From a virus, in IMG/VR virus record IMGVR_UViG_3300029550_000043, positions 1 to 6,334 of that record: DNA of 6,334 nt. One strand, written 5' to 3'. How positions within the stretch are numbered: the first letter of the stretch is position 1; every line of letters begins with the position of its first letter. Positions 1 to 6,334 of the stretch are shown here, piece by piece. The notes below the pieces were generated by a model. That model was not told the DNA's origin. It did no database searches and saw nothing but the letters and a program-made list of their open reading frames with translations. Both the position numbers and the translations under genes were made by a program.

Positions 1-99
1 GCTTTTCCTTATCGAGCCAACGGAGATTTGTATCAGCTAGCTTATGTTGAATCTCAGTAAGACCAGCCAATTGATTATAATATGAAGACTGAGAACCTA
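1..99. repeat. Terminal redundancy, left copy (assembly overlap of a circular genome)
   Basis: I compared 1-99 with 6236-6334 base by base and they are identical. This gives a unit length of 6,235 nt. Confidence 0.95.
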
Positions 100-796
100 A
101 AAGAGTATTTTGGAACTTAACAGAATCAAGTCTATCATCCATAGAATTACGTAAATACTTAGCCTCTAAAGCAGAAATATCGCCTTGTTTCTCCTTAAGA
201 CGCAAATCAGTTAAAAACTGAGCAGCAGCAAACTGATTACGTAACTTATCATAATCATTTTGCAAATCAGCGTTTTGCGCATCTGCAGTAGTCTTAGCAA
301 CATTAGCCTTTTGCAAATCATTCTGAAATGCAAACTGAGCAATCTGAGACGCAGCAGAACTAATACTATTACCCAGAGCTTGATAACCACCAGCTATTGT
401 ACTACCTACATCAGGAGCAACTTGCGTACCTGAGGTATCAGCAGTAGGAGCACTATCAGCAATACCAGCAGAACCACCATCTAACATAAGATAAGGGTTA
501 AGACCGGCAGCCTCTAATCTAGCACGCTGAGCAGAAGGTGTATTGTATTCATTCTGCAAATTCCACATACGCTCATTAAAAGCATTGTTGTCTTGAGCAA
601 TTTGATAATTCATCTGATTAGTTTCGCGAACAGCTTGAAGTTGTTTACGAGCAGCATAATGAGAACCAGAAGAACTAAAAAGACCACCAATTAAAGAACC
701 AGCACCAGCAATAGCAGCAGCACCTAAACCAGAACATTTAAGTGGACGTTGGAGCACCGAAGTGCTACCAACATCACGAAATACTAGATGTAACAT
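1..796 (-). CDS. VP2: Microviridae minor capsid / DNA pilot protein VP2, 5' portion. The gene crosses the circular junction, continues at 6235 and stops at 5877, giving 384 aa in total.
   Basis: The ATG is at 796-794, 3 nt after the stop of the upstream ORF. My own minus-strand translation stays open down to base 1: MLHLVFRDVGSTSVLQRPLKCSGLGAAAIAGAGSLIGGLFSSSGSHYAARKQLQAVRETNQMNYQIAQDNNAFNERMWNLQNEYNTPSAQRARLEAAGLNPYLML... The Gly/Ala/Ser-rich N-terminus followed by the YN-[ST]-P-x-x-Q-x-x-x-L-x-x-AGLNP block is typical of gokusho/alpavirus VP2. The frame matches track ORF 5877..6305 once 1-99 = 6236-6334 is applied (796-70 = 726, divisible by 3). The ORF is missing from the track only because it runs off the window edge. 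Confidence 0.85.
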   Translation of the reverse strand, partial: MLHLVFRDVGSTSVLQRPLKCSGLGAAAIAGAGSLIGGLFSSSGSHYAARKQLQAVRETNQMNYQIAQDNNAFNERMWNLQNEYNTPSAQRARLEAAGLNPYLMLDGGSAGIADSAPTADTSGTQVAPDVGSTIAGGYQALGNSISSAASQIAQFAFQNDLQKANVAKTTADAQNADLQNDYDKLRNQFAAAQFLTDLRLKEKQGDISALEAKYLRNSMDDRLDSVKFQNTLLGSQSSYYNQLAGLTEIQHKLADTNLRWLDKEK

Positions 797-799
797 AAG

Positions 800-1243
800 C
801 TACTCATTATTAATAGGCTCAGAATCAGAACCAAGACGTAAAACAAAATCACGCAAAGCAATATTAGCTTTACGAAGTTTTTCAGTATCCTCAGAATCCT
901 TAGCCTTTTTAACTTCATTATCCAACTCTTTCATAAAAGCTTTAGTCTTTTCAACCTTATCAGAAAGAAACTGAGTATATCTGGAATCAGTCATATCCAT
1001 TTTCTGAAAGTCATCAAGCTTATCAAAAGAAGCACGAAGTTCAGGAGACATAGAATCCTTGACCTCTTGAAGACGATTACTAATAATATCTACCATATTC
1101 TGAGACAAATTAAGTTCAGAAAGACGGGTAAGAATATAAACATCACTATGTAAACAGACAGTATCTTTATCTACTACCTGATGTTGCAACTCTTCGCCAA
1201 TAGGCTTTACATAATGCAACACACCACTTAAAGAAATATCCAT
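800..1243 (-). CDS. 147-aa acidic, probably helical protein between VP1 and VP2. It is a putative internal scaffolding (VP3-like) protein.
   Basis: Track ORF with ATG at 1243-1241 and TAG at 802-800. It shares the T-ending codon style of its neighbours. It starts 8 nt after the VP1 stop and ends 3 nt before the VP2 start. It is rich in D/E/K/L with no hydrophobic segment. The functional call rests only on position and composition, by analogy with gokushovirus VP3. Confidence 0.75.
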   Translation of the reverse strand: MDISLSGVLHYVKPIGEELQHQVVDKDTVCLHSDVYILTRLSELNLSQNMVDIISNRLQEVKDSMSPELRASFDKLDDFQKMDMTDSRYTQFLSDKVEKTKAFMKELDNEVKKAKDSEDTEKLRKANIALRDFVLRLGSDSEPINNE

Positions 1244-1251
1244 AACTAAAA

Positions 1252-3126
1252 CTATTTAGAATAAGGTAAACCATAACGCGAAAGATTACGCGTAGTATAA
1301 CACATATTGACCATGCCAACATAAAGTTGGTCATCATCACTATTTTTCGTAGAAATAAGAGCAAACATATTCTTTACAATATCAGGACGGCAAGCAAACA
1401 AATTAGGAGCGTTTAAGCCATCCCAAGTATTGAGTACATTATTTTGAATAGCATCAAAATTAATACCTGTTACCCAAGATTTGAGAGAATGACAAAAAGC
1501 ACCGTTAAAGCGGTCATAAGATGTTTTATACTCAGAATAACGGGGTGCATAACCATAAGTAGAAGACATATCAGGAAGAGAACCTGAACCCGTCTTAAAA
1601 GGCAAAAATTCATCATTATAAGGAGCAGGAGCAGCAATTTCGCAACGGAAAGTCTGCTGCATACCAATACTATCTAACTCTGGAATAACAAAATCAGAAG
1701 CATCCGTTTTAAAAAGAGTACGGTCAATACCAAGATGAGCGAAATCAAGAACAGGTGTACAACGATAAATGCCAATGACAACACCATAAGTTTTAGCGGT
1801 GAACTTAACATCGGCAGAACCATTTCCTTGTGGAGCAGCACAATAAGTAGCCTTACCACCAGTAGCAAAATTCTGATTAATTTGTTCATTAATATTAAGC
1901 ATACTACTTGCACCACCAATAAACAAAGAATTCTCATCCTTATCATTTGGCTTAATACCGAAATGAGCTTCAACTTGTGACTGAAAATCAACATCATTTG
2001 CAAGCTGGATTTCTTTGTAACGCTGAAGTGCAACAGCATTACGCAAAGCAACGATAGACATTGCAGAAGTAATAGAACCGGCAGCTATAGAATGATTATG
2101 ATGAACCTGAGAATTTTGAACTTTCAAGTTGTGACCATCAAAAGTAGAAACACTAACATTTGAAGGCATAGCCGTACCACCATCTACAAACCACGAATTA
2201 TTATCTATAGTTGTAAATGAATTATTAGTATTCTTCAAAGAAACGACAGACTCATCGCCAAACTGAGCGGTGGGGAGGACACCGGTAAAATAATCTAAAG
2301 GCAAATTACTGAAACGCATATCAAGAATGTTCATACTGTCAGCCTTTGGAGTACCAGGAATAGCCAAAAGTGCATCATCGATATTTAACAAAGACGAAGA
2401 ATTCGGCGTAAGGTAATCAACATTACATAAAGATGCCTGATAAGGCTGCCACTGTCTATAAATGTAATGGTCATTACAAATCTTATGATAAGCCAACAAT
2501 CGAAAAATAGAAAGATAAGGACTATTCTTGTATTGAACATCATTAAAATCCTTATTAGAGACTCCATTTTTACGATTAATAACATCAAATTCTGCAAACT
2601 GCTCTGGGAAATTACCATAACCAAGCAACTGAAGCAACTTAGCACTCTCTGCATGACGATAACAACCGCGAATGAACTGAGGACCATTTACCTCAACTTC
2701 AGAGGCCTTAATATATTTCAACAAATAAGCATGAAGAGTCTTATAGTTTACACAAGGCATTTGTGTAGTTACCTTAGAATCCTGAGTAAGACTAGACGCA
2801 ATACGGGAAATATCACCGTTATTAGCATTTTTGGTCATATTCATAACCTGAGAGTCGAAATACTTCCAAAGGGCAGAATAAGGAACAAAAAAGAACTGTA
2901 CATTTTCACGAAGACGCGTGAACGCATTAGACTGCAAAGGAGCAGTACGAGTAAAATAAGAACAATTTACCTTAACAGAATCGCCAGGATTAAGCTCCTG
3001 AACAAAACAAGGTAAAAGTTCACCAACCTTAGCCGTAAAAAGATTACGGTGAGAAAGGTCAAAAGAGTTTCGAGAAGGCTTATTACGCAAGCCATGCAAA
3101 CCCATAACATTTGAACGATTAGCCAT
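1252..3126 (-). CDS. VP1: Microviridae major capsid protein VP1 (phiX174 F-protein family), 624 aa
   Basis: The N-terminus MANRSNVMGLHGLRNKPSRNSFDLSHRNLFTAKVGELLPCFVQELNPGDSVKVNCSYFTRTAPLQSNAFTRLRENVQFFFVPYSALW carries the family hallmarks R-[ST]-x-FDLSH, G-x-L-x-P, E-x-x-PGD and FFVP-x-x-x-x-W. The size fits non-phiX microviruses. The ORF ends with TAG TTT TAG. Confidence 0.95.
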   Translation of the reverse strand: MANRSNVMGLHGLRNKPSRNSFDLSHRNLFTAKVGELLPCFVQELNPGDSVKVNCSYFTRTAPLQSNAFTRLRENVQFFFVPYSALWKYFDSQVMNMTKNANNGDISRIASSLTQDSKVTTQMPCVNYKTLHAYLLKYIKASEVEVNGPQFIRGCYRHAESAKLLQLLGYGNFPEQFAEFDVINRKNGVSNKDFNDVQYKNSPYLSIFRLLAYHKICNDHYIYRQWQPYQASLCNVDYLTPNSSSLLNIDDALLAIPGTPKADSMNILDMRFSNLPLDYFTGVLPTAQFGDESVVSLKNTNNSFTTIDNNSWFVDGGTAMPSNVSVSTFDGHNLKVQNSQVHHNHSIAAGSITSAMSIVALRNAVALQRYKEIQLANDVDFQSQVEAHFGIKPNDKDENSLFIGGASSMLNINEQINQNFATGGKATYCAAPQGNGSADVKFTAKTYGVVIGIYRCTPVLDFAHLGIDRTLFKTDASDFVIPELDSIGMQQTFRCEIAAPAPYNDEFLPFKTGSGSLPDMSSTYGYAPRYSEYKTSYDRFNGAFCHSLKSWVTGINFDAIQNNVLNTWDGLNAPNLFACRPDIVKNMFALISTKNSDDDQLYVGMVNMCYTTRNLSRYGLPYSK

Positions 3127-3130
3127 AATT

Positions 3131-4630
3131 TTACAAATTAGAATTAATATTTAATAAAGCAATTTGGTCACGATGTTTAATAGAACGTAAAAAACGAATC
3201 TGTTCCGAAACAGCAAAACGTGAATACTCAGAATCAGAACCATAAATATACGAACCATTAATATGTCGTAACTGATAAATGTTATAATAATTAGTACAAT
3301 AATCTTTAGAATCGAGACAATTCTCAAAATGCGAGCGTAAACAAGACAAATCCAAATACTTATAAAAATCCATATACTTACGAAAATAAGCAGTAGGAGT
3401 TAATTGACAAATACGCGCAGCAGTAAGAAATGCACGACTAGCAGAGACGCAAGAACGCAAAGCACTAAAAAGGGAAACATTTTTAGAATGCAAAACCGAA
3501 CAATATGCAAAACGCAAATAACCAAAGATATCATGATAATCAGCATGATTAAAATGATAATGGTTAAACAAACGTCTACAAATTAAAGATACTGAATCTG
3601 AATGATAAAGCACTCTTAATGTTTCGAAACACGTAAGTACTCTATATGTTTCCTCAAAAGACAAGCGGTTTGCACATGTAAATTTTGGGAAGAATCGAGA
3701 GTAATACGACCGCCAAATGGAATAAGTGTTTTCAACGCCAAAAATATCGATAAAGAATTGTCGCTTAAAAAACGAAAAGTCACCTTTTTGGATAGCTGAA
3801 ACAAAACTTTCGAGCGGTAAAATCTGACCAAGGTGATTAGAGTGATATGCTTTTTGATTTGAAAGTAATACAAGCAACTTGGGAAAATCAGAAGACTGGT
3901 TAACATACGAAGAAACGTAATTATAGGACTCTCCATTCGTACGTTTCGAATCACAAATACCGAACTGCCAGAACGGACGTAAAAAGCGAGGACATTGACA
4001 TGGACGGGAAGTTGTGCCAACGTTTTCACAAATCTCGAACGCCTGACTAAGTGCAGTCGAGTTGAAGAACAATAACAAATGCCAATGCGGACGGAGTGAT
4101 TTTGTACCGTACTCTCCAATAACGTAGAAACGAATTTTTTCACCATAATATTTATAAATATATTTTCTAATACGTTTTAAAAATAACTGAATATCTCTAT
4201 AATAAAGTAAGGCATATAAACCATGACCATAAACGCAAGATTTATGATATTTATGTTCATAATTAATCACAAAAGAGGAGTAATAATCCATTTTATCAAC
4301 AAAATCAGAATCAAAATTATAAAAATCCTCACAGAAATCATCAATAAGTGAATCATTACGCAAACGTCTAGAATATGGATAAAGCCGTATGAAGTCTTGA
4401 GAAAGTGAATCACAACCCAAGGAGAACAAAGGCAGATTATCATCATCATAAGTAAGTGTCAAAAAATAACAATACTTAGAAGTATATTCTTCGAGACGCA
4501 ATTTAAGCGAAAGAGAAGAACGCTTGTTATTCTGACAAGCAACACAATGACCACAAGGGACTTGATAAGGATAACCACGAGAATCCTTTAAAATCAAAGG
4601 CGATAAACACTTAACAAAAGACTGAATCAT
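3131..4630 (-). CDS. VP4: Rolling-circle replication initiator VP4 (HUH endonuclease superfamily, phiX174 gene A type), 499 aa
   Basis: I verified all three RCR motifs on the DNA. Motif 1 is FLTLTY (4448-4465). Motif 2 (HUH) is HWHLLLF (4067-4087). Motif 3 is the two-tyrosine YVSSYVNQ (3896-3919; compare YVAKYVNK of phiX174 A). There is also an N-terminal Cys cluster, PCGHCVAC. The ATG at 4630-4628 overlaps the TAA of the upstream ORF. Confidence 0.95.
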   Translation of the reverse strand: MIQSFVKCLSPLILKDSRGYPYQVPCGHCVACQNNKRSSLSLKLRLEEYTSKYCYFLTLTYDDDNLPLFSLGCDSLSQDFIRLYPYSRRLRNDSLIDDFCEDFYNFDSDFVDKMDYYSSFVINYEHKYHKSCVYGHGLYALLYYRDIQLFLKRIRKYIYKYYGEKIRFYVIGEYGTKSLRPHWHLLLFFNSTALSQAFEICENVGTTSRPCQCPRFLRPFWQFGICDSKRTNGESYNYVSSYVNQSSDFPKLLVLLSNQKAYHSNHLGQILPLESFVSAIQKGDFSFFKRQFFIDIFGVENTYSIWRSYYSRFFPKFTCANRLSFEETYRVLTCFETLRVLYHSDSVSLICRRLFNHYHFNHADYHDIFGYLRFAYCSVLHSKNVSLFSALRSCVSASRAFLTAARICQLTPTAYFRKYMDFYKYLDLSCLRSHFENCLDSKDYCTNYYNIYQLRHINGSYIYGSDSEYSRFAVSEQIRFLRSIKHRDQIALLNINSNL

Positions 4631-4836
4631 TAATACCTGTATTTAAAATTACGGAAATAATCACTTGAATGAAATACAGTGGTAGTATCTTGAATAATAA
4701 CTGTACCACGACCTTTAAACTCAACTGCTCTACTAGAAGAGCAAGAAGTAAGTGCAGAAATGCCAAGGTAAGAACCAATCAAACCAAGGGCATATATAAG
4801 CACCTTAATAACAATTTTCAAAACTTCTTTTTTCAT
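4630..4836 (-). CDS. 68-aa small secreted/membrane protein with a lipoprotein-type signal peptide. Function unknown.
   Basis: The track ORF 4630..4842 begins at a TTG. The ATG two codons in (4836-4834) gives MKKEVLKIVIKVLIYALGLIGSYLGISALTSCSSSRAVEFKGRGTVIIQDTTTVFHSSDYFRNFKYRY. This has a basic n-region, a long hydrophobic core and a lipobox-like L-T-S-C, with the Cys codon at 4741-4743. The stop TAA (4632-4630) shares one base with the Rep ATG, forming TAATG. Confidence 0.65.
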   Translation of the reverse strand: MKKEVLKIVIKVLIYALGLIGSYLGISALTSCSSSRAVEFKGRGTVIIQDTTTVFHSSDYFRNFKYRY

Positions 4837-4847
4837 ACACAAAAATT

Positions 4848-5063
4848 TTATATAAGTTGAAAATAATTACGAGAATCATACGAATAAATAATATCAGTAA
4901 ATGAAATTGACGGGTGAACAAAAGTATCTTTAATCATCCGAACAAAATCATCAACATAATCAACAGAAACGCCAAAATGAAGAACTCGAACTGATGAAAT
5001 ATCAGTATAAGAAATCACACAACGGAGATACTGAGATAAATGTATTTTATTTTTCCTTATCAT
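4848..5063 (-). CDS. 71-aa hypothetical protein, first gene of the minus-strand block
   Basis: Track ORF with ATG at 5063-5061 and TAA at 4850-4848, 11 nt upstream of the next gene. It has the same codon style as its neighbours. I recognise no motif in it. Confidence 0.55.
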   Translation of the reverse strand: MIRKNKIHLSQYLRCVISYTDISSVRVLHFGVSVDYVDDFVRMIKDTFVHPSISFTDIIYSYDSRNYFQLI

Positions 5064-5132
5064 AACTAACCAAAAATTTTATTTTTACATGAATAATCTA
5101 TATCAGAAACAATAAATAACTGATTTCGAGAG

Positions 5133-5140
5133 CAAAGATA
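5133..5140 (-). promoter_or_regulatory. Candidate Bacteroidota-type -7 promoter element TAnnTTTG, read as TATCTTTG on the minus strand
   Basis: This is the only exact TAnnTTTG match on the minus strand anywhere in the 813-nt non-coding region. It lies 70 nt upstream of the first ATG (5063). No good TTTG -33 box sits at the expected 19-21 nt spacing; the nearest TTTG is 33 nt away. Confidence 0.3.
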
Positions 5141-5147
5141 AACAATA

Positions 5148-5175
5148 TTTTTATATAACCGGTATTATGTAAACA
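5148..5175 (+). other. dif-like 11-6-11 site TTTTTATATAA-CCGGTA-TTATGTAAACA, a candidate XerC/XerD recombination or attP site
   Basis: The inner arms ATAA/TTAT are inverted around a 6-bp spacer. From memory, the right arm TTATGTAAACA matches the B. subtilis dif XerD-side arm TTATGTAAACT at 10/11 and the E. coli arm TTATGTTAAAT at 8/11. The left arm is AT-rich and matches only at the inner ATAA. Confidence 0.3.
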
Positions 5176-5187
5176 AATTTTAATTAA

Positions 5188-5211
5188 ATTTCACAATGTT
5201 TCACGTGAAAT
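5188..5211. promoter_or_regulatory. Perfect 12-bp palindrome TTTCACGTGAAA (5199-5210) plus one extra upstream direct copy of ATTTCAC (5188-5194). Candidate operator.
   Basis: Read directly from the sequence: ATTTCACaatgTTTCACGTGAAAT. It lies between the candidate minus-strand promoter and the plus-strand structured domain. Confidence 0.3.
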
Positions 5212-5216
5212 GCAAA

Positions 5217-5326
5217 CTCAGAAATAGCAAAATAAGACGAAAGTGTATAAATTACCACTAGATGAGCGCATCGGTAACACTATACGCTCCACCTAAATAG
5301 GTGCAGTGTCACTTTCGCTATTTGAG
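5217..5326. other. Roughly 110-nt domain closed by long-range complementarity. Candidate structured RNA or ssDNA element.
   Basis: CGAAAGTG (5238-5245) is the exact reverse complement of CACTTTCG (5310-5317). Directly outside that pair, AAATAG (5222-5227) pairs with CTATTT (5318-5323) and CTC (5217-5219) with GAG (5324-5326). Inside are the local stems GAGCG/CGCTC (5264-5268/5285-5289) and CACC/GGTG (5290-5293/5300-5303). Confidence 0.4.
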
Positions 5327-5339
5327 AACAAGAGAGAGA

Positions 5340-5371
5340 GGAATCTGGGAAAAGTAACCCAGATTTCTTTT
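5340..5371 (+). terminator. Terminator-like hairpin oriented on the plus strand, opposite to all genes
   Basis: The sequence is GGAATCTGGG-aaaagtaa-CCCAGATTTC followed by TTTT. The stem is 10 bp including one G:T, with a perfect core AATCTGGG/CCCAGATT (5342-5349/5358-5365). On the minus strand the hairpin is followed by CCTCTCTCTC, not a T-run. Confidence 0.35.
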
Positions 5372-5380
5372 AGTTAGGAG

Positions 5381-5660
5381 GATAGCAGCGCGTTTCACGC
5401 GCTATAACACGCACGGACTTCGTCCGTATGCTTGCGCGAAATGATAACCGGCGATTAGGGGGCGGTACTCGCCGCCCCCTATAACCCCTCGAGCAAGCGT
5501 GACGCTTGACCCATTTACGCTCCGCGGGGTCTGCCGACGGCTTTCTCTTTGGCATTGCCCAAAGAGAAACAGAAAGGCTAGTGTTTTTCATGGTATTGAT
5601 GAGCTGGCGCATTGAGTTGTTTGTAGCTGGGCTATCGTTTCCTTACACGGAAACTCGCGC
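5381..5660. other. GC-rich island made of multiple stem-loops. Function unknown; candidates are a complementary-strand or replication origin structure, or a structured ncRNA.
   Basis: My hand count is 153/280 G+C (about 55%), against roughly 18-40% in coding lines I sampled. Perfect hairpins are: AGCGCG-tttca-CGCGCT (5387-5403); ACGGAC-ttc-GTCCGT (5413-5427); TAGGGGGCGG-tactcg-CCGCCCCCTA (5456-5481); CAAGCG-tga-CGCTTG (5494-5508); TTTCTCTTTGG-cattgc-CCAAAGAGAAA (5542-5569); GTTTCC-ttacac-GGAAAC (5637-5654). ACCCC (5484-5488) with GGGGT (5526-5530) brackets the fourth hairpin listed. GATAGC (5381-5386) with GCTATC (5631-5636) could close the whole island. Confidence 0.5.
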
Positions 5661-5669
5661 ACTCTAGCT

Positions 5670-5713
5670 TATTAGTGTATGATTGCGCACCTATTAGTGT
5701 ATGATTGCGCACT
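5670..5713. repeat. Two tandem 22-bp direct repeats (TATTAGTGTATGATTGCGCAC + 1 nt), iteron-like
   Basis: 5670-5691 and 5692-5713 are identical at 21/22 positions. A partial third copy (ATTGCGC) starts at 5718. Confidence 0.9.
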
Positions 5714-5719
5714 TATAAT

Positions 5720-5755
5720 TGCGCGCGCGCACGCGTAAACGCGCGCACGCACGCA
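5720..5755. repeat. Alternating purine-pyrimidine (mostly GC) tracts flanking a short CGCG-taaa-CGCG hairpin
   Basis: The tracts are GCGCGCGCGCACGCGTA (5721-5737) and CGCGCGCACGCACGCA (5740-5755). CGCG 5732-5735 pairs with CGCG 5740-5743. The tracts contain two of the five same-strand GCGCAC motifs, which sit at 5657, 5685, 5707, 5727 and 5743. Confidence 0.85.
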
Positions 5756-5830
5756 GAAATGGGTGAATAATATATAAACAATATGAAATAAACAGAGAAT
5801 GAAAATAAGTTTTAGTAAATAAGAATAAAC

Positions 5831-5863
5831 AAAAAAATGCTTTCTCTCACATGGAGAGAAAGC
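5831..5863 (-). terminator. Rho-independent terminator of the minus-strand gene block
   Basis: The minus strand reads GCTTTCTCTC-catgt-GAGAGAAAGC-A-TTTTTTT-G, a perfect 10-bp stem (5839-5848/5854-5863) with a 5-nt loop and a T7 run. It starts 13 nt after the VP2 stop codon. Confidence 0.8.
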
Positions 5864-5876
5864 AATCGAAAGAGAG

Positions 5877-6334
5877 TTATTTTCTAGACTTTTTGGCAAA
5901 ACGTCTGATAGGGTGACCAGAACCATATCCATGAAAATCACCAGACGCAGCATTACCAAGACCTTTAACAAAAGAACCAGGTAAATTAGTAACAGGTATA
6001 TCAAATCCCATACGTGACTTCTCATTAATCCATAGACCTTGCTCATACTCATTTTCAGCCTTACCAATAGATAAGTCATAAATATCATTCTTAAGACGAT
6101 TGTCAATACGAACACCAGCAGCTTGAGCAGCATTGAGACCAGCCATAACAATCATATTCTTAGCACTGGCATAATTAAGATGCATCTGACTAGCAGCAGT
6201 ACGCGCATTCTGGATAGCAGCCATAATAGAAACTTGCTTTTCCTTATCGAGCCAACGGAGATTTGTATCAGCTAGCTTATGTTGAATCTCAGTAAGACCA
6301 GCCAATTGATTATAATATGAAGACTGAGAACCTA
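5877..6334 (-). CDS. VP2: VP2 minor capsid / pilot protein, 3' portion. This is the same gene as 1..796, and 6236-6334 duplicates 1-99.
   Basis: The track ORF 5877..6305 'starts' at an internal TTG, but the frame stays open to the window end and joins 1..796 across the junction. The stop is TAA at 5879-5877. The C-terminus is ...GHPIRRFAKKSRK. Confidence 0.85.
   Translation of the reverse strand, partial: GSQSSYYNQLAGLTEIQHKLADTNLRWLDKEKQVSIMAAIQNARTAASQMHLNYASAKNMIVMAGLNAAQAAGVRIDNRLKNDIYDLSIGKAENEYEQGLWINEKSRMGFDIPVTNLPGSFVKGLGNAASGDFHGYGSGHPIRRFAKKSRK
6236..6334. repeat. Terminal redundancy, right copy
   Basis: Identical to 1-99. The VP2 reading frame is continuous across the implied junction. 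Confidence 0.95.

Follow-up and report, generated by a model that had tools for sequence, protein, structure and literature searches.

The genome analysed here, IMG/VR virus record IMGVR_UViG_3300029550_000043 (positions 1 to 6,334; the window), raises the question of what a GC-rich, hairpin-dense island is doing in the non-coding DNA of a microvirus whose sequence is otherwise AT-rich. The window represents a circular microvirus genome of 6,235 nucleotides (nt) with an exact 99-nt terminal direct repeat (1-99 = 6236-6334). Its overall G+C content (GC) is 36% (35.3% in 1-5063), and every gene lies on the minus strand. This strand is T-rich (38% T, 26% A), and we take it to be the packaged viral strand, which in the Microviridae is the gene-sense strand. 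The non-coding region at 5064-5876 measures 813 nt, or 13% of the genome, and holds no open reading frame (ORF) that has a protein-family match or is kept in relatives. Within this region a preliminary description, made from the sequence alone, had marked out a GC-rich block by hand counts that proved exact, namely 153 G+C in the 280 nt of 5381-5660 (54.6%) and 202 in the 380 nt of 5381-5760 (53.2%), and it had proposed either a complementary-strand origin or a structured non-coding RNA (ncRNA). The present analysis located a conserved structured element of ∼225 nt in the core of this island, at 5437-5661. We tentatively favour, at somewhat less than an even chance, the reading that this element is a portable single-stranded DNA (ssDNA) cis element read by a host factor, in other words a complementary-strand (minus-strand) origin.

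The preliminary description had asked for homologous regions in related microviruses, and these were indeed found in many. By IMG/VR and metagenome motif scans, filtered locally, the element was retrieved from at least 76 distinct microvirus genomes, plus fragments, and a blastn search of GenBank phages returned five microviruses matching 5437-5612 at 80-90% identity. Its GC exceeded that of the genome carrying it in all 76 cases (mean 51% versus 38%). Position and orientation relative to the genes were constant in 33 of 33 contigs of 4-9 kb, with the element placed between the VP2-like gene and the small-ORF cluster. Of the GC block that had been regarded as one unit, the core at 5437-5661 is conserved, whereas 5381-5436 and 5662-5760 are made up of lineage-specific hairpins and repeats. 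The best genome-wide matches of the window have capsid genes that are only ∼70% identical at the DNA level. Across the element-bearing genomes, amino-acid identity to the window ranged from 26 to 78% for the capsid protein (VP1) and from 23 to 83% for Rep, as compared with 70-92% nucleotide identity of the element over aligned stretches. Judged from these comparisons, no large protein of these temperate gut microviruses is as well conserved as the element, and conservation so far beyond that of the proteins fits a site that is read by a conserved host factor. As the most conserved sequence in these genomes, it could also be used as a marker to detect this group of temperate microviruses, prophages included.

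A match of the island to a host gene fragment had been named as an outcome that would speak against its significance. A composite motif of the element matched no genome among 185,579 bacterial and archaeal species representatives, and the five matches to the 19-mer at 5573-5591 alone were close to the estimated chance number and came without the adjoining hairpins; a host origin was therefore rejected. Among plasmid records the sole match was PLSDB entry NZ_CP050055.1 (6,313 bp, 'Pseudomonas aeruginosa plasmid'), where 4919-4966 showed 90% identity to the hairpin HP-L plus the unpaired block that follows it; this entry is probably a microvirus carried into that assembly.

Read on the plus strand, the 5′ part of the element consists of GCGAT, the hairpin HP1 (TAGGG...CCCTA, 7-11 base pairs (bp)), TAACC and a variable central domain. 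The 3′ part continues with HP-L, a short linker, the unpaired block, a less conserved stretch, the hairpin HP-3′ and CTCGC. The loop of HP-L, GGCATTGCCC, is nearly invariant among the homologues, most of which were gathered with exact patterns containing loop and block. The exact block was present in 8 of 9 homologues collected via another motif and in 3 of the 5 blastn hits, with one mismatch in L002. At the site of the central hairpin HP2, other subtypes carry non-homologous hairpins instead, for example GTCGG-ACG-CCGAC or CTTCCGG-TCAT-CCGGAAG.

The preliminary description had counted at least six perfect stem-loops of 6-11 bp in the island, and a stem-loop scan recovered six within 5381-5660. 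This number was reached in none of 2000 mononucleotide shuffles, for which 0.35 ± 0.59 such hairpins were expected, while the coding part of the genome contains 0.83 per 280 nt. In agreement with this, the predicted fold of 5370-5770 was far more stable than that of dinucleotide shuffles, whether calculated as RNA (z = −5.6 for the minus and −5.5 for the plus strand) or as DNA (z = −5.5, minus strand). The long-range complements ACCCC/GGGGT and GATAGC/GCTATC, thought to bracket the hairpins, fared less well: in alignments judged by eye they seemed neither kept nor covarying in the homologues, and in the predicted fold GGCTATC paired with 5445-5451 rather than with 5382-5387. The latter pairing, a candidate closing helix, had both G-T and A-C positions among relatives and was not counted as supported. 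A long-range closing helix GATAAC/GTTRTC was likewise set aside, as no consistent covariation was evident by eye.

Preservation of the stems in homologues had been set as a test of the island, and compensatory changes were found to keep HP-L, HP1 and HP-3′. Covariation was assessed hairpin by hairpin, each anchored on its invariant flank. This replaced RNAalifold on MAFFT alignments of 37 full elements, which was uninformative on both strands because the central hairpins differ between subtypes and MAFFT misaligns the stems. In HP-L, pairs 1-9 were 100% Watson-Crick in 34 distinct versions, while pairs 6-10 switched among TA, CG, GC and AT. When pairs were counted over 31 distinct versions, 97.1% of the cells were paired versus 83.4% in shuffles (0/500), the covariation score was 0.44 versus 0.17 (0/500), and 55 cells had changed on both sides with none changed on one side only. 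HP1 occurred in ten distinct versions with stems of 7-11 bp, in which pairs 6, 7, 9 and 10 switched among GC, CG, TA and AT; a census of its pairs gave 87 Watson-Crick and 2 G-T. For HP-3′, all 134 pairs in 26 distinct versions were Watson-Crick, and the outer pairs covaried (TA/CG at pair 1; TA/AT/GC at pair 2).

The pairing also bears on the nature of the folded molecule. Over 87 distinct hairpins we counted 656 Watson-Crick pairs, 13 G-T and 15 A-C, and neither strand was favoured. If the element acted as an RNA, G-U pairs should be tolerated on the strand of that RNA; given so few wobble pairs, and G-T about as frequent as A-C, neither strand behaves like a functional RNA strand, and the pattern is the one that DNA hairpins would be expected to show. 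Minimum free energies (MFE) of 37 sequences likewise preferred no strand, with means of −90.8 and −88.3 kcal/mol and the plus strand better in 21 of the 37. In line with the earlier statement that the island belongs to no known RNA family and is no tRNA, cmscan of both strands against Rfam 15 gave no match at E ≤ 1, and ARAGORN found no tRNA or tmRNA. Promoter boxes preceding the element were searched for in either direction in the 76 genomes and none was positionally conserved; a check by eye for promoter mimicry within the hairpins found no convincing Bacteroides −33/−7 arrangement. On the sense strand the element follows a strong intrinsic terminator and precedes the one full Bacteroides-type −7 box of the region. 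By these motif-level signals, the element apparently sits in an untranscribed gap.

The island is not devoid of reading frames. One of them encodes 80 Arg/Lys-rich amino acids on the minus strand (5370..5612), with a shorter version starting from a conserved ATG at 5591. We rejected the 80-residue frame as a conserved small basic protein, as its relatives agree neither in frame nor in length and it matches no protein family. The ORF from the conserved ATG ranged from 11 to 117 residues and was at most 25 residues long in 22 of 51 distinct versions; it was open through the whole element in only 20 of 41 versions, and the HP-L region was translated in three different frames. Over the stretch from the ATG to HP1, length modulo 3 was conserved no better than in a control segment, and neither Pfam nor PHROG gave a match for the island ORFs. 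The element therefore does not look like a maintained protein-coding gene, and its stops fall at random. A regularity in threes was nevertheless seen between HP-L and its linker. In 59 of 59 parsed versions three homopolymer runs, of T in the 5′ arm of HP-L and of A in both its 3′ arm and the linker, had the same length (3, 4 or 5), and the linker spacer lengthened with the outer stem of HP-L, so that one more base pair meant exactly 3 nt more. The linker sequence C-A(n)-G can pair with C-T(n)-G of the 5′ arm, and a helix of 5-7 bp is always possible. This +3 rule could result either from the alternative linker/5′-arm helix or from a short frame, starting at the ATG, that is kept through the hairpin.

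The same element occurs outside the microviruses. Five contigs of ∼10 kb (L173, L215, L218, L267 and L187) carry it without detectable microvirus genes. Close homologues of a 496-residue protein of this replicon contain the Rep_trans domain (PF02486). Rep_trans proteins are rolling-circle initiators, and their replicons are expected to pass through ssDNA. The replicon also encodes an M15 endolysin, a single-stranded DNA-binding protein (SSB), an Ig-domain structural protein and a 265-residue Xer-like tyrosine recombinase, for which the XerC, XerA and XerD models gave values of 1e-48 to 1e-52 without reaching their cutoffs. In this replicon family, all genes are on one strand, protein clusters have up to 2,163 members, and the Xer-like recombinase is present only in some members; the family was not found among the GenBank phages searched and may represent a phage group not yet described. 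Its non-coding region exceeds 1 kb and is GC-rich and repeat-dense. L307, L309 and L310 are relatives of the five contigs. In members of the family lacking the element, other repeat- and hairpin-rich islands of 60-73% GC occupy the same non-coding position. The element is therefore exchangeable between unrelated replicons, as is the case for cassettes of single-strand origins (sso), and by module exchange it links the microviruses to an apparently undescribed ∼10-kb rolling-circle replicon. Assemblies of the Rep_trans replicon often break at the element, a practical warning that it breaks or mis-joins metagenome assemblies. In L187, 640-1300 contains a tandem duplicate of a ∼225-nt GC-rich variant of the entire element.

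The conservation, structure, position, distribution and portability of the element are direct observations. A complementary-strand origin would bring them together if ssDNA is the active form and priming the activity, both of which we infer. After entry, host SSB would cover the AT-rich viral strand, whereas the GC-rich, perfectly paired hairpins would withstand melting and present the invariant HP-L loop together with the ∼27-nt unpaired block (ATACC-ATGAAAAACACTAGCCTTT). A conserved host priming activity, be it RNA polymerase, primase or a PriA-type primosome, would then recognise this display and lay a primer, which a host polymerase would extend to yield the double-stranded replicative form. 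Read by host factors only, such a cassette would be able to pass from one rolling-circle replicon to an unrelated one in the same hosts. Of the two proposals in the preliminary description, the minus-strand origin is accordingly the better supported, though undemonstrated, while the structured RNA was weakened by the pairing and by the apparently untranscribed position. More doubtful is the wider claim that the element is a host-read priming cassette which constitutes the first complementary-strand origin beyond the phiX-group microviruses and the first for any Bacteroidota replicon, exchanged by recombination among temperate microviruses of deeply diverged lineages and with the unrelated Rep_trans replicon, and too constrained to escape being a CRISPR target (clustered regularly interspaced short palindromic repeats). 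If true, a whole guild of gut ssDNA replicons would have this weak point in common, and HP-L with its linker may in addition form a two-state switch.

Known systems offer several points of comparison. Phages phiX174 and G4 and the Ff phages have hairpin minus-strand origins in intergenic DNA. The element resembles those of phiX174 (PriA/n′ hairpin) and G4 (primase hairpins) in being a set of intergenic viral-strand hairpins, theirs being folded under SSB and read by the host, but it has no detectable sequence relation to them, belongs to phages of Bacteroidales hosts, is longer and is not universal. With the Ff phages (M13/fd) the window shares a single large non-coding region past a terminator, a chain of hairpins and the format of a compact circular ssDNA phage; the virus family is different and there is no sequence similarity. 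The single-strand origins ssoA, ssoT, ssoU and ssoW are non-coding, paired, orientation-dependent stretches of 150-300 nt with loop motifs, which are read by RNA polymerase and act as interchangeable cassettes. The element is likewise non-coding, has extensive conserved intrastrand pairing and is a cassette found in unrelated replicons. Of the ssoA signatures, RSB and CS-6 (TAGCGT/A in a terminal loop), an inspection by eye found TAGCG within the conserved GSCTAGCGS motif of the element, on the non-viral strand only. In the literature searched, no sso was found defined in Bacteroidota.

The closest precedent of the proposed kind lies within the microviruses themselves. The statement in the preliminary description that no such element is defined for these phages is out of date, since two other clades, the reekeekee- and roodoodoo-microviruses, have conserved intergenic hairpins with identical loops and compensatory changes, for which a role in negative-strand initiation was tentatively proposed (PMC9865509). 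As in those hairpins (PMC9865509, section 3.8), the position is intergenic, the loop is constant (here partly by construction), the stems are compensated on both arms and stops are random. The differences, compared by description rather than by sequence, are considerable. The reekeekee and roodoodoo structures are one or two single hairpins of 13-64 nt that are clade-specific (PMC9865509), whereas the element is a GC-enriched, cross-lineage array of ∼225 nt with a long unpaired block, is also present in a non-microvirus replicon, is linked to an attachment site (attP) and is targeted by CRISPR. A further parallel is the CTXphi attP and the integron attC, which share with the element a single-stranded replicon, the keeping of structure over stem sequence and an association with Xer-family recombination and dif, but the crossover mapped here uses an ordinary dif-like site of 28 bp, at ∼260 nt from the element. 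Filamentous vibriophages, too, can hold a dif-like attP (PMC3091885). The element was not described in Rfam or in the literature searched. Its size and architecture, conservation across deep lineages, presence in an unrelated replicon and recurrent targeting by CRISPR are new; conserved intergenic microvirus hairpins as possible minus-strand origins are of a kind already proposed. Being sharply bounded, with positions that do not vary and compensatory variants that occur in nature, it is a concrete candidate for a complementary-strand start beyond phiX174 and G4, in phages that are among the most abundant of the human gut.

Several observations weigh against a complementary-strand origin, every functional step of which is one that we infer. 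The near-invariance of loop and block is partly by construction, as most homologues were collected with exact patterns. The missing bias of G-T over A-C pairs fails to single out the viral strand, and a cruciform or two-strand form would fit equally well. The 19-mer of the Rep_trans replicon lies on the strand that carries the genes, opposite to the microviruses. In both replicons the T-rich strand has its complement, but this is a weak argument, since double-stranded replicons ordinarily have A-rich coding strands; depending on which strand the Rep_trans replicon displaces, the orientation there may or may not agree with that in the microviruses. The +3 rule hints that translation from the conserved ATG may matter, and the tight link of the element to attP, and hence to the temperate phages, could equally point to a function in lysogeny. 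Lastly, phiHBP1, a cultured Bacteroides fragilis microvirus (PMC13064476), has genes covering 84-6194 of its 6319 nt, no such island and no room for attP. The element is therefore not universal among microviruses, and microviruses of this host group can do without a large dedicated origin.

Alternatives were weighed against the same observations. A structured ncRNA made from the island, perhaps in plus orientation, antisense to the microvirus genes and in the same direction as the integrase operon of the Rep_trans replicon, with a role in regulation, immunity or lysogeny, is in our view unlikely. Such an RNA would account for the conserved multi-hairpin fold with its covariation and invariant loops and linkers, and absence from Rfam is compatible with a new family. 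It would also suit the Rep_trans replicon, where the gene strand carries the 19-mer and the element precedes ORF114 and the Xer-like recombinase by ∼350-450 nt, and the 17 of 76 genomes in which a TAnnTTTG box lies ∼275 nt upstream in plus orientation. However, several hundred paired cells nearly without G-U-type intermediates and without strand bias are hard to reconcile with it, as is the lack of any strand preference in MFE; the plus orientation has no positionally conserved promoter or terminator, and on the sense strand the element comes after a terminator. If anything slightly less likely still is a viral-strand (plus) origin in which Rep nicks the HP-L loop or the adjoining block, perhaps via a cruciform as in the hairpin origins known from rolling-circle plasmids and CRESS-DNA viruses, as part of an Ff-like origin region. 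HUH nick sites classically consist of an invariant loop borne by a covarying stem, the strict Watson-Crick and strand-unbiased pairing suits a cruciform, and the element occupies the major non-coding region of two rolling-circle replicons. Yet one invariant 40-nt site would have to serve Reps that are down to 23% identical as well as a second initiator family (PF02486), which seems improbable, and phiX174 needs no hairpin. A resemblance of the block to the 30-nt phiX174 origin CAACTTGATATTAATAACACTATAGACCAC (NC_001422) was not significant (best local score 18, P = 0.09 against shuffles, with 13% of genome windows scoring as high), and homology to that origin was rejected.

We consider it quite unlikely that the element serves lysogeny, as a folded-ssDNA or accessory structure that aids Xer recombination at attP, excision or prophage maintenance, even though element and dif-like attP stay together at a fixed distance, as a single module, in at least 46 of the 76 genomes, and L299 has both as well. 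Integrated prophages have the element beside attL, the second replicon has it beside the gene for its Xer-like tyrosine recombinase, and phiHBP1 has room for neither element nor attP; tyrosine recombinases acting on folded ssDNA have precedents in attC and in CTXphi (PMC3091885). Set against this, the crossover takes place at a distance of ∼260 nt, in an 11-6-11 site that is complete in itself and requires no partner, and the dif-like half-site of the second replicon is, as seen by eye, differently arranged. Known Xer accessory sequences act as duplex, moreover, which would not select for covarying hairpins. Very improbable in our estimation is a translated short ORF from the conserved ATG (viral strand, 5591), whose product would be a leader peptide or else a small protein of basic or hydrophobic character and would account for part of the conservation. 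The ATG and the six first codons (MKNTSL) are conserved in 51 distinct versions, changes in HP-L stem length are matched by the linker to a total that is a multiple of 3 (59/59 parsed), and the Lys/Arg-rich sequence after a hydrophobic start is reminiscent of small Microviridae DNA-binding or lysis proteins. But the three frames across HP-L, the range of 11-117 residues, the 20 of 41 open versions and the unkept modulo 3 speak against translation, and so do the missing Pfam and PHROG matches and an orientation antisense to all genes of the second replicon. The first codons, furthermore, show no synonymous variation, which coding alone leaves unexplained, and for the +3 rule the pairing of linker C-A(n)-G with C-T(n)-G offers a structural alternative. 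To an assembly chimera or a captured, functionless host gene fragment we give almost no credence: the composition is sharply unlike the rest of the genome and second-replicon assemblies tend to break at the element, but a comparison of 33 independent assemblies of 4-9 kb, which come from many samples, shows it in the same place and orientation, its stems are kept by compensatory change, and the composite motif is absent from 185,579 genomes. The probability that remains also covers explanations we have not considered.

Besides the phages, ∼50 metagenome contigs with the 19-mer proved to be CRISPR arrays, of which 42 have the 30-nt repeat GTTCTAATCGCACCTTTATGGAATTGAAAT and three the 36-nt repeat GTTGTGGTTTGATGTAGGAATCAAAAGATATACAAC. 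These 45 arrays (among L170-L287, e.g. L186, L274 and L172) contain up to 136 repeats. Of their 2,168 distinct spacers, 249 (11%) match the 76 microvirus genomes along their full length. At the element, the protospacer-adjacent motif (PAM) is the CCA within the invariant GCCCAAAG, and a 5′-CC(A) PAM was found in 196-197 of 214 other protospacers, from which we read a type I, DNA-targeting CRISPR system. Four distinct spacers match the window at 5561/5562-5594..5596, two of them with 0 mismatches, and in six arrays two or three spacers are directed at different alleles of the site. That the block has stayed almost unchanged despite this targeting speaks for a strong constraint. The element is thus a recurrent CRISPR target, and the spacers, which tie the phages to hosts with a specific type I array and the PAM CC(A), help in host assignment. 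We do not claim a spacer hotspot at the element, as the arrays were found via this very sequence and conserved sites match more easily. A strand bias of 157:57 among protospacers outside the site was considered as a sign of RNA or ssDNA targeting and rejected, being accounted for by the availability of CCA, which is 2.44:1 commoner on that strand. Elsewhere in the window the same arrays have ten matching spacers at ≤3 mismatches, among them one that fits 2952-2985 in the capsid gene with 0 mismatches.

The attachment site next to the island was placed with the help of prophages. When prophage L168 was aligned to the window, its right arm matched up to 5173 and its left arm resumed at 5148; the attL and attR cores have TAACCGGTATTATGGTAA in common, and the host arms of L168 attL and attR give the host site as TTTAATTCTAA-CCGGTA-TTATGGTAAAT. 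With the crossover mapping to 5148-5175, the island itself was rejected as attP. Six prophage contigs (L168, L174, L190, L210, L255 and L278) show the microviruses inserted into bacterial chromosomes, a copy of the core standing at either end, flanked by host genes for gyrase A, AcrB efflux pumps plus outer-membrane factor, alpha-galactosidase and a histidine kinase with DUF5113. In the window attP lies ∼260 nt from the element, and in at least 46 of the 76 genomes the motif is 325-600 nt from HP-L. A further microvirus with this type of attP, L299, is the only one with the region on its contig, and it has the element too. The dif-like attP is itself already known: the 11-6-11 kind was described for Bacteroidales microvirus proviruses, and our data agree with that Xer/dif model (PMC3091885). 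For the enterogokushoviruses, a dif-like site was shown to work through XerC/D, and a synthetic enterogokushovirus genome was rebooted (PMC7062461). Seven IMG/VR contigs of 6.7-8.2 kb (L100, L139, L142, L146, L147, L150 and L156) have attL-type and attR-type sites about one genome length apart, and are therefore prophages with short host flanks rather than free circular genomes.

Table 1. Positions of the features of the window discussed in the text (strand given where one applies).
Feature	Position	Strand	Basis and remarks
Conserved structured element, core of GC island	5437..5661		∼225 nt; blastn to relatives, 70-92% identity
HP1, 10 bp	5456..5481		TAGGGGGCGG/CCGCCCCCTA; flanks GCGAT and TAACC conserved
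HP2, 6 bp	5494..5508		CAAGCG-TGA-CGCTTG; variable central domain
HP-L, 11 bp	5542..5569		Centre TTTGG-CATTGC-CCAAA nearly invariant; outer stem covaries, length variable
Linker and nearly invariant unpaired block	5570..5600		Plus strand: AAAGGCTAGTGTTTTTCAT (5573-5591), then (A)GGTAT; viral strand: ATACC-ATGAAAAACACTAGCCTTT
CRISPR protospacer	5559..5597	+	PAM CCA at 5559-5561; targeted by spacers of many arrays
HP-3′, 6 bp	5637..5654		GTTTCC-TTACAC-GGAAAC; then conserved CTCGC
Two lineage-specific hairpins	5387..5427		Outside blastn-conserved block
Perfect stem-loop, 7 bp	5387-5403		Stem-loop scan
Perfect stem-loop, 6 bp	5413-5427		Stem-loop scan
Lineage-specific GC flank	5670..5753		Tandem 22-nt repeat 5670-5713 and GC-rich palindrome ∼5718-5753
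Dif-like attP, 28 bp	5148..5175		TTTTTATATAA-CCGGTA-TTATGTAAACA; 11-6-11 layout; outside island
Candidate Bacteroides-type −7 promoter box	5133..5140	minus	TATCTTTG; motif match alone; upstream of small-ORF cluster
Intrinsic terminator	5838..5864	minus	11-bp stem and T7 run; directly past stop of VP2-like gene
Capsid	1252..3126	minus	Phage_F; PHROG major head protein
Rep	3131..4630	minus	PF23343; PHROG replication initiation protein
VP2-like ORF, 417 aa (amino acids)	Spans window ends	minus	ORF list and protein comparison
Small-ORF cluster	Starts at 5063	minus	ORF70 and ORF71 next to non-coding region

The remainder of the non-coding region is not idle. The view of one 813-nt region making up 13% of the genome held for its size but not for a single purpose, since the same stretch also holds attP, a terminator and a promoter-like box. 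The latter is the only full match to TAnnTTTG in the non-coding region (5140-5133), the consensus of the Bacteroides −7 box. On the other side of the element, the tandem 22-nt repeat at 5670-5713 has the unit TATTAGTGTATGATTGCGCAC(C/T). In most relatives the counterpart of 5670..5753 is a GC hairpin with a T-run, which resembles a terminator on the viral strand and lies immediately upstream of the element; across the 76 genomes the +100 bin had 58 hits to such terminator-like hairpins and the +125 bin 34. The GTGCGCA repeats were considered as XerC arms or iterons and rejected, being in most relatives the arms of this terminator-like hairpin.

On the attP side, the small-ORF cluster begins with ORF71 (4848..5063, minus) and ORF70 (4630..4842, minus). 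Neither has a family match. The two show 50-93% amino-acid identity in relatives where capsid and Rep reach 25-55%, so that a conserved module spans ∼4736-5661. The N-terminus of ORF70 has a segment that resembles a signal peptide and ends in LTSC, similar to a lipobox.

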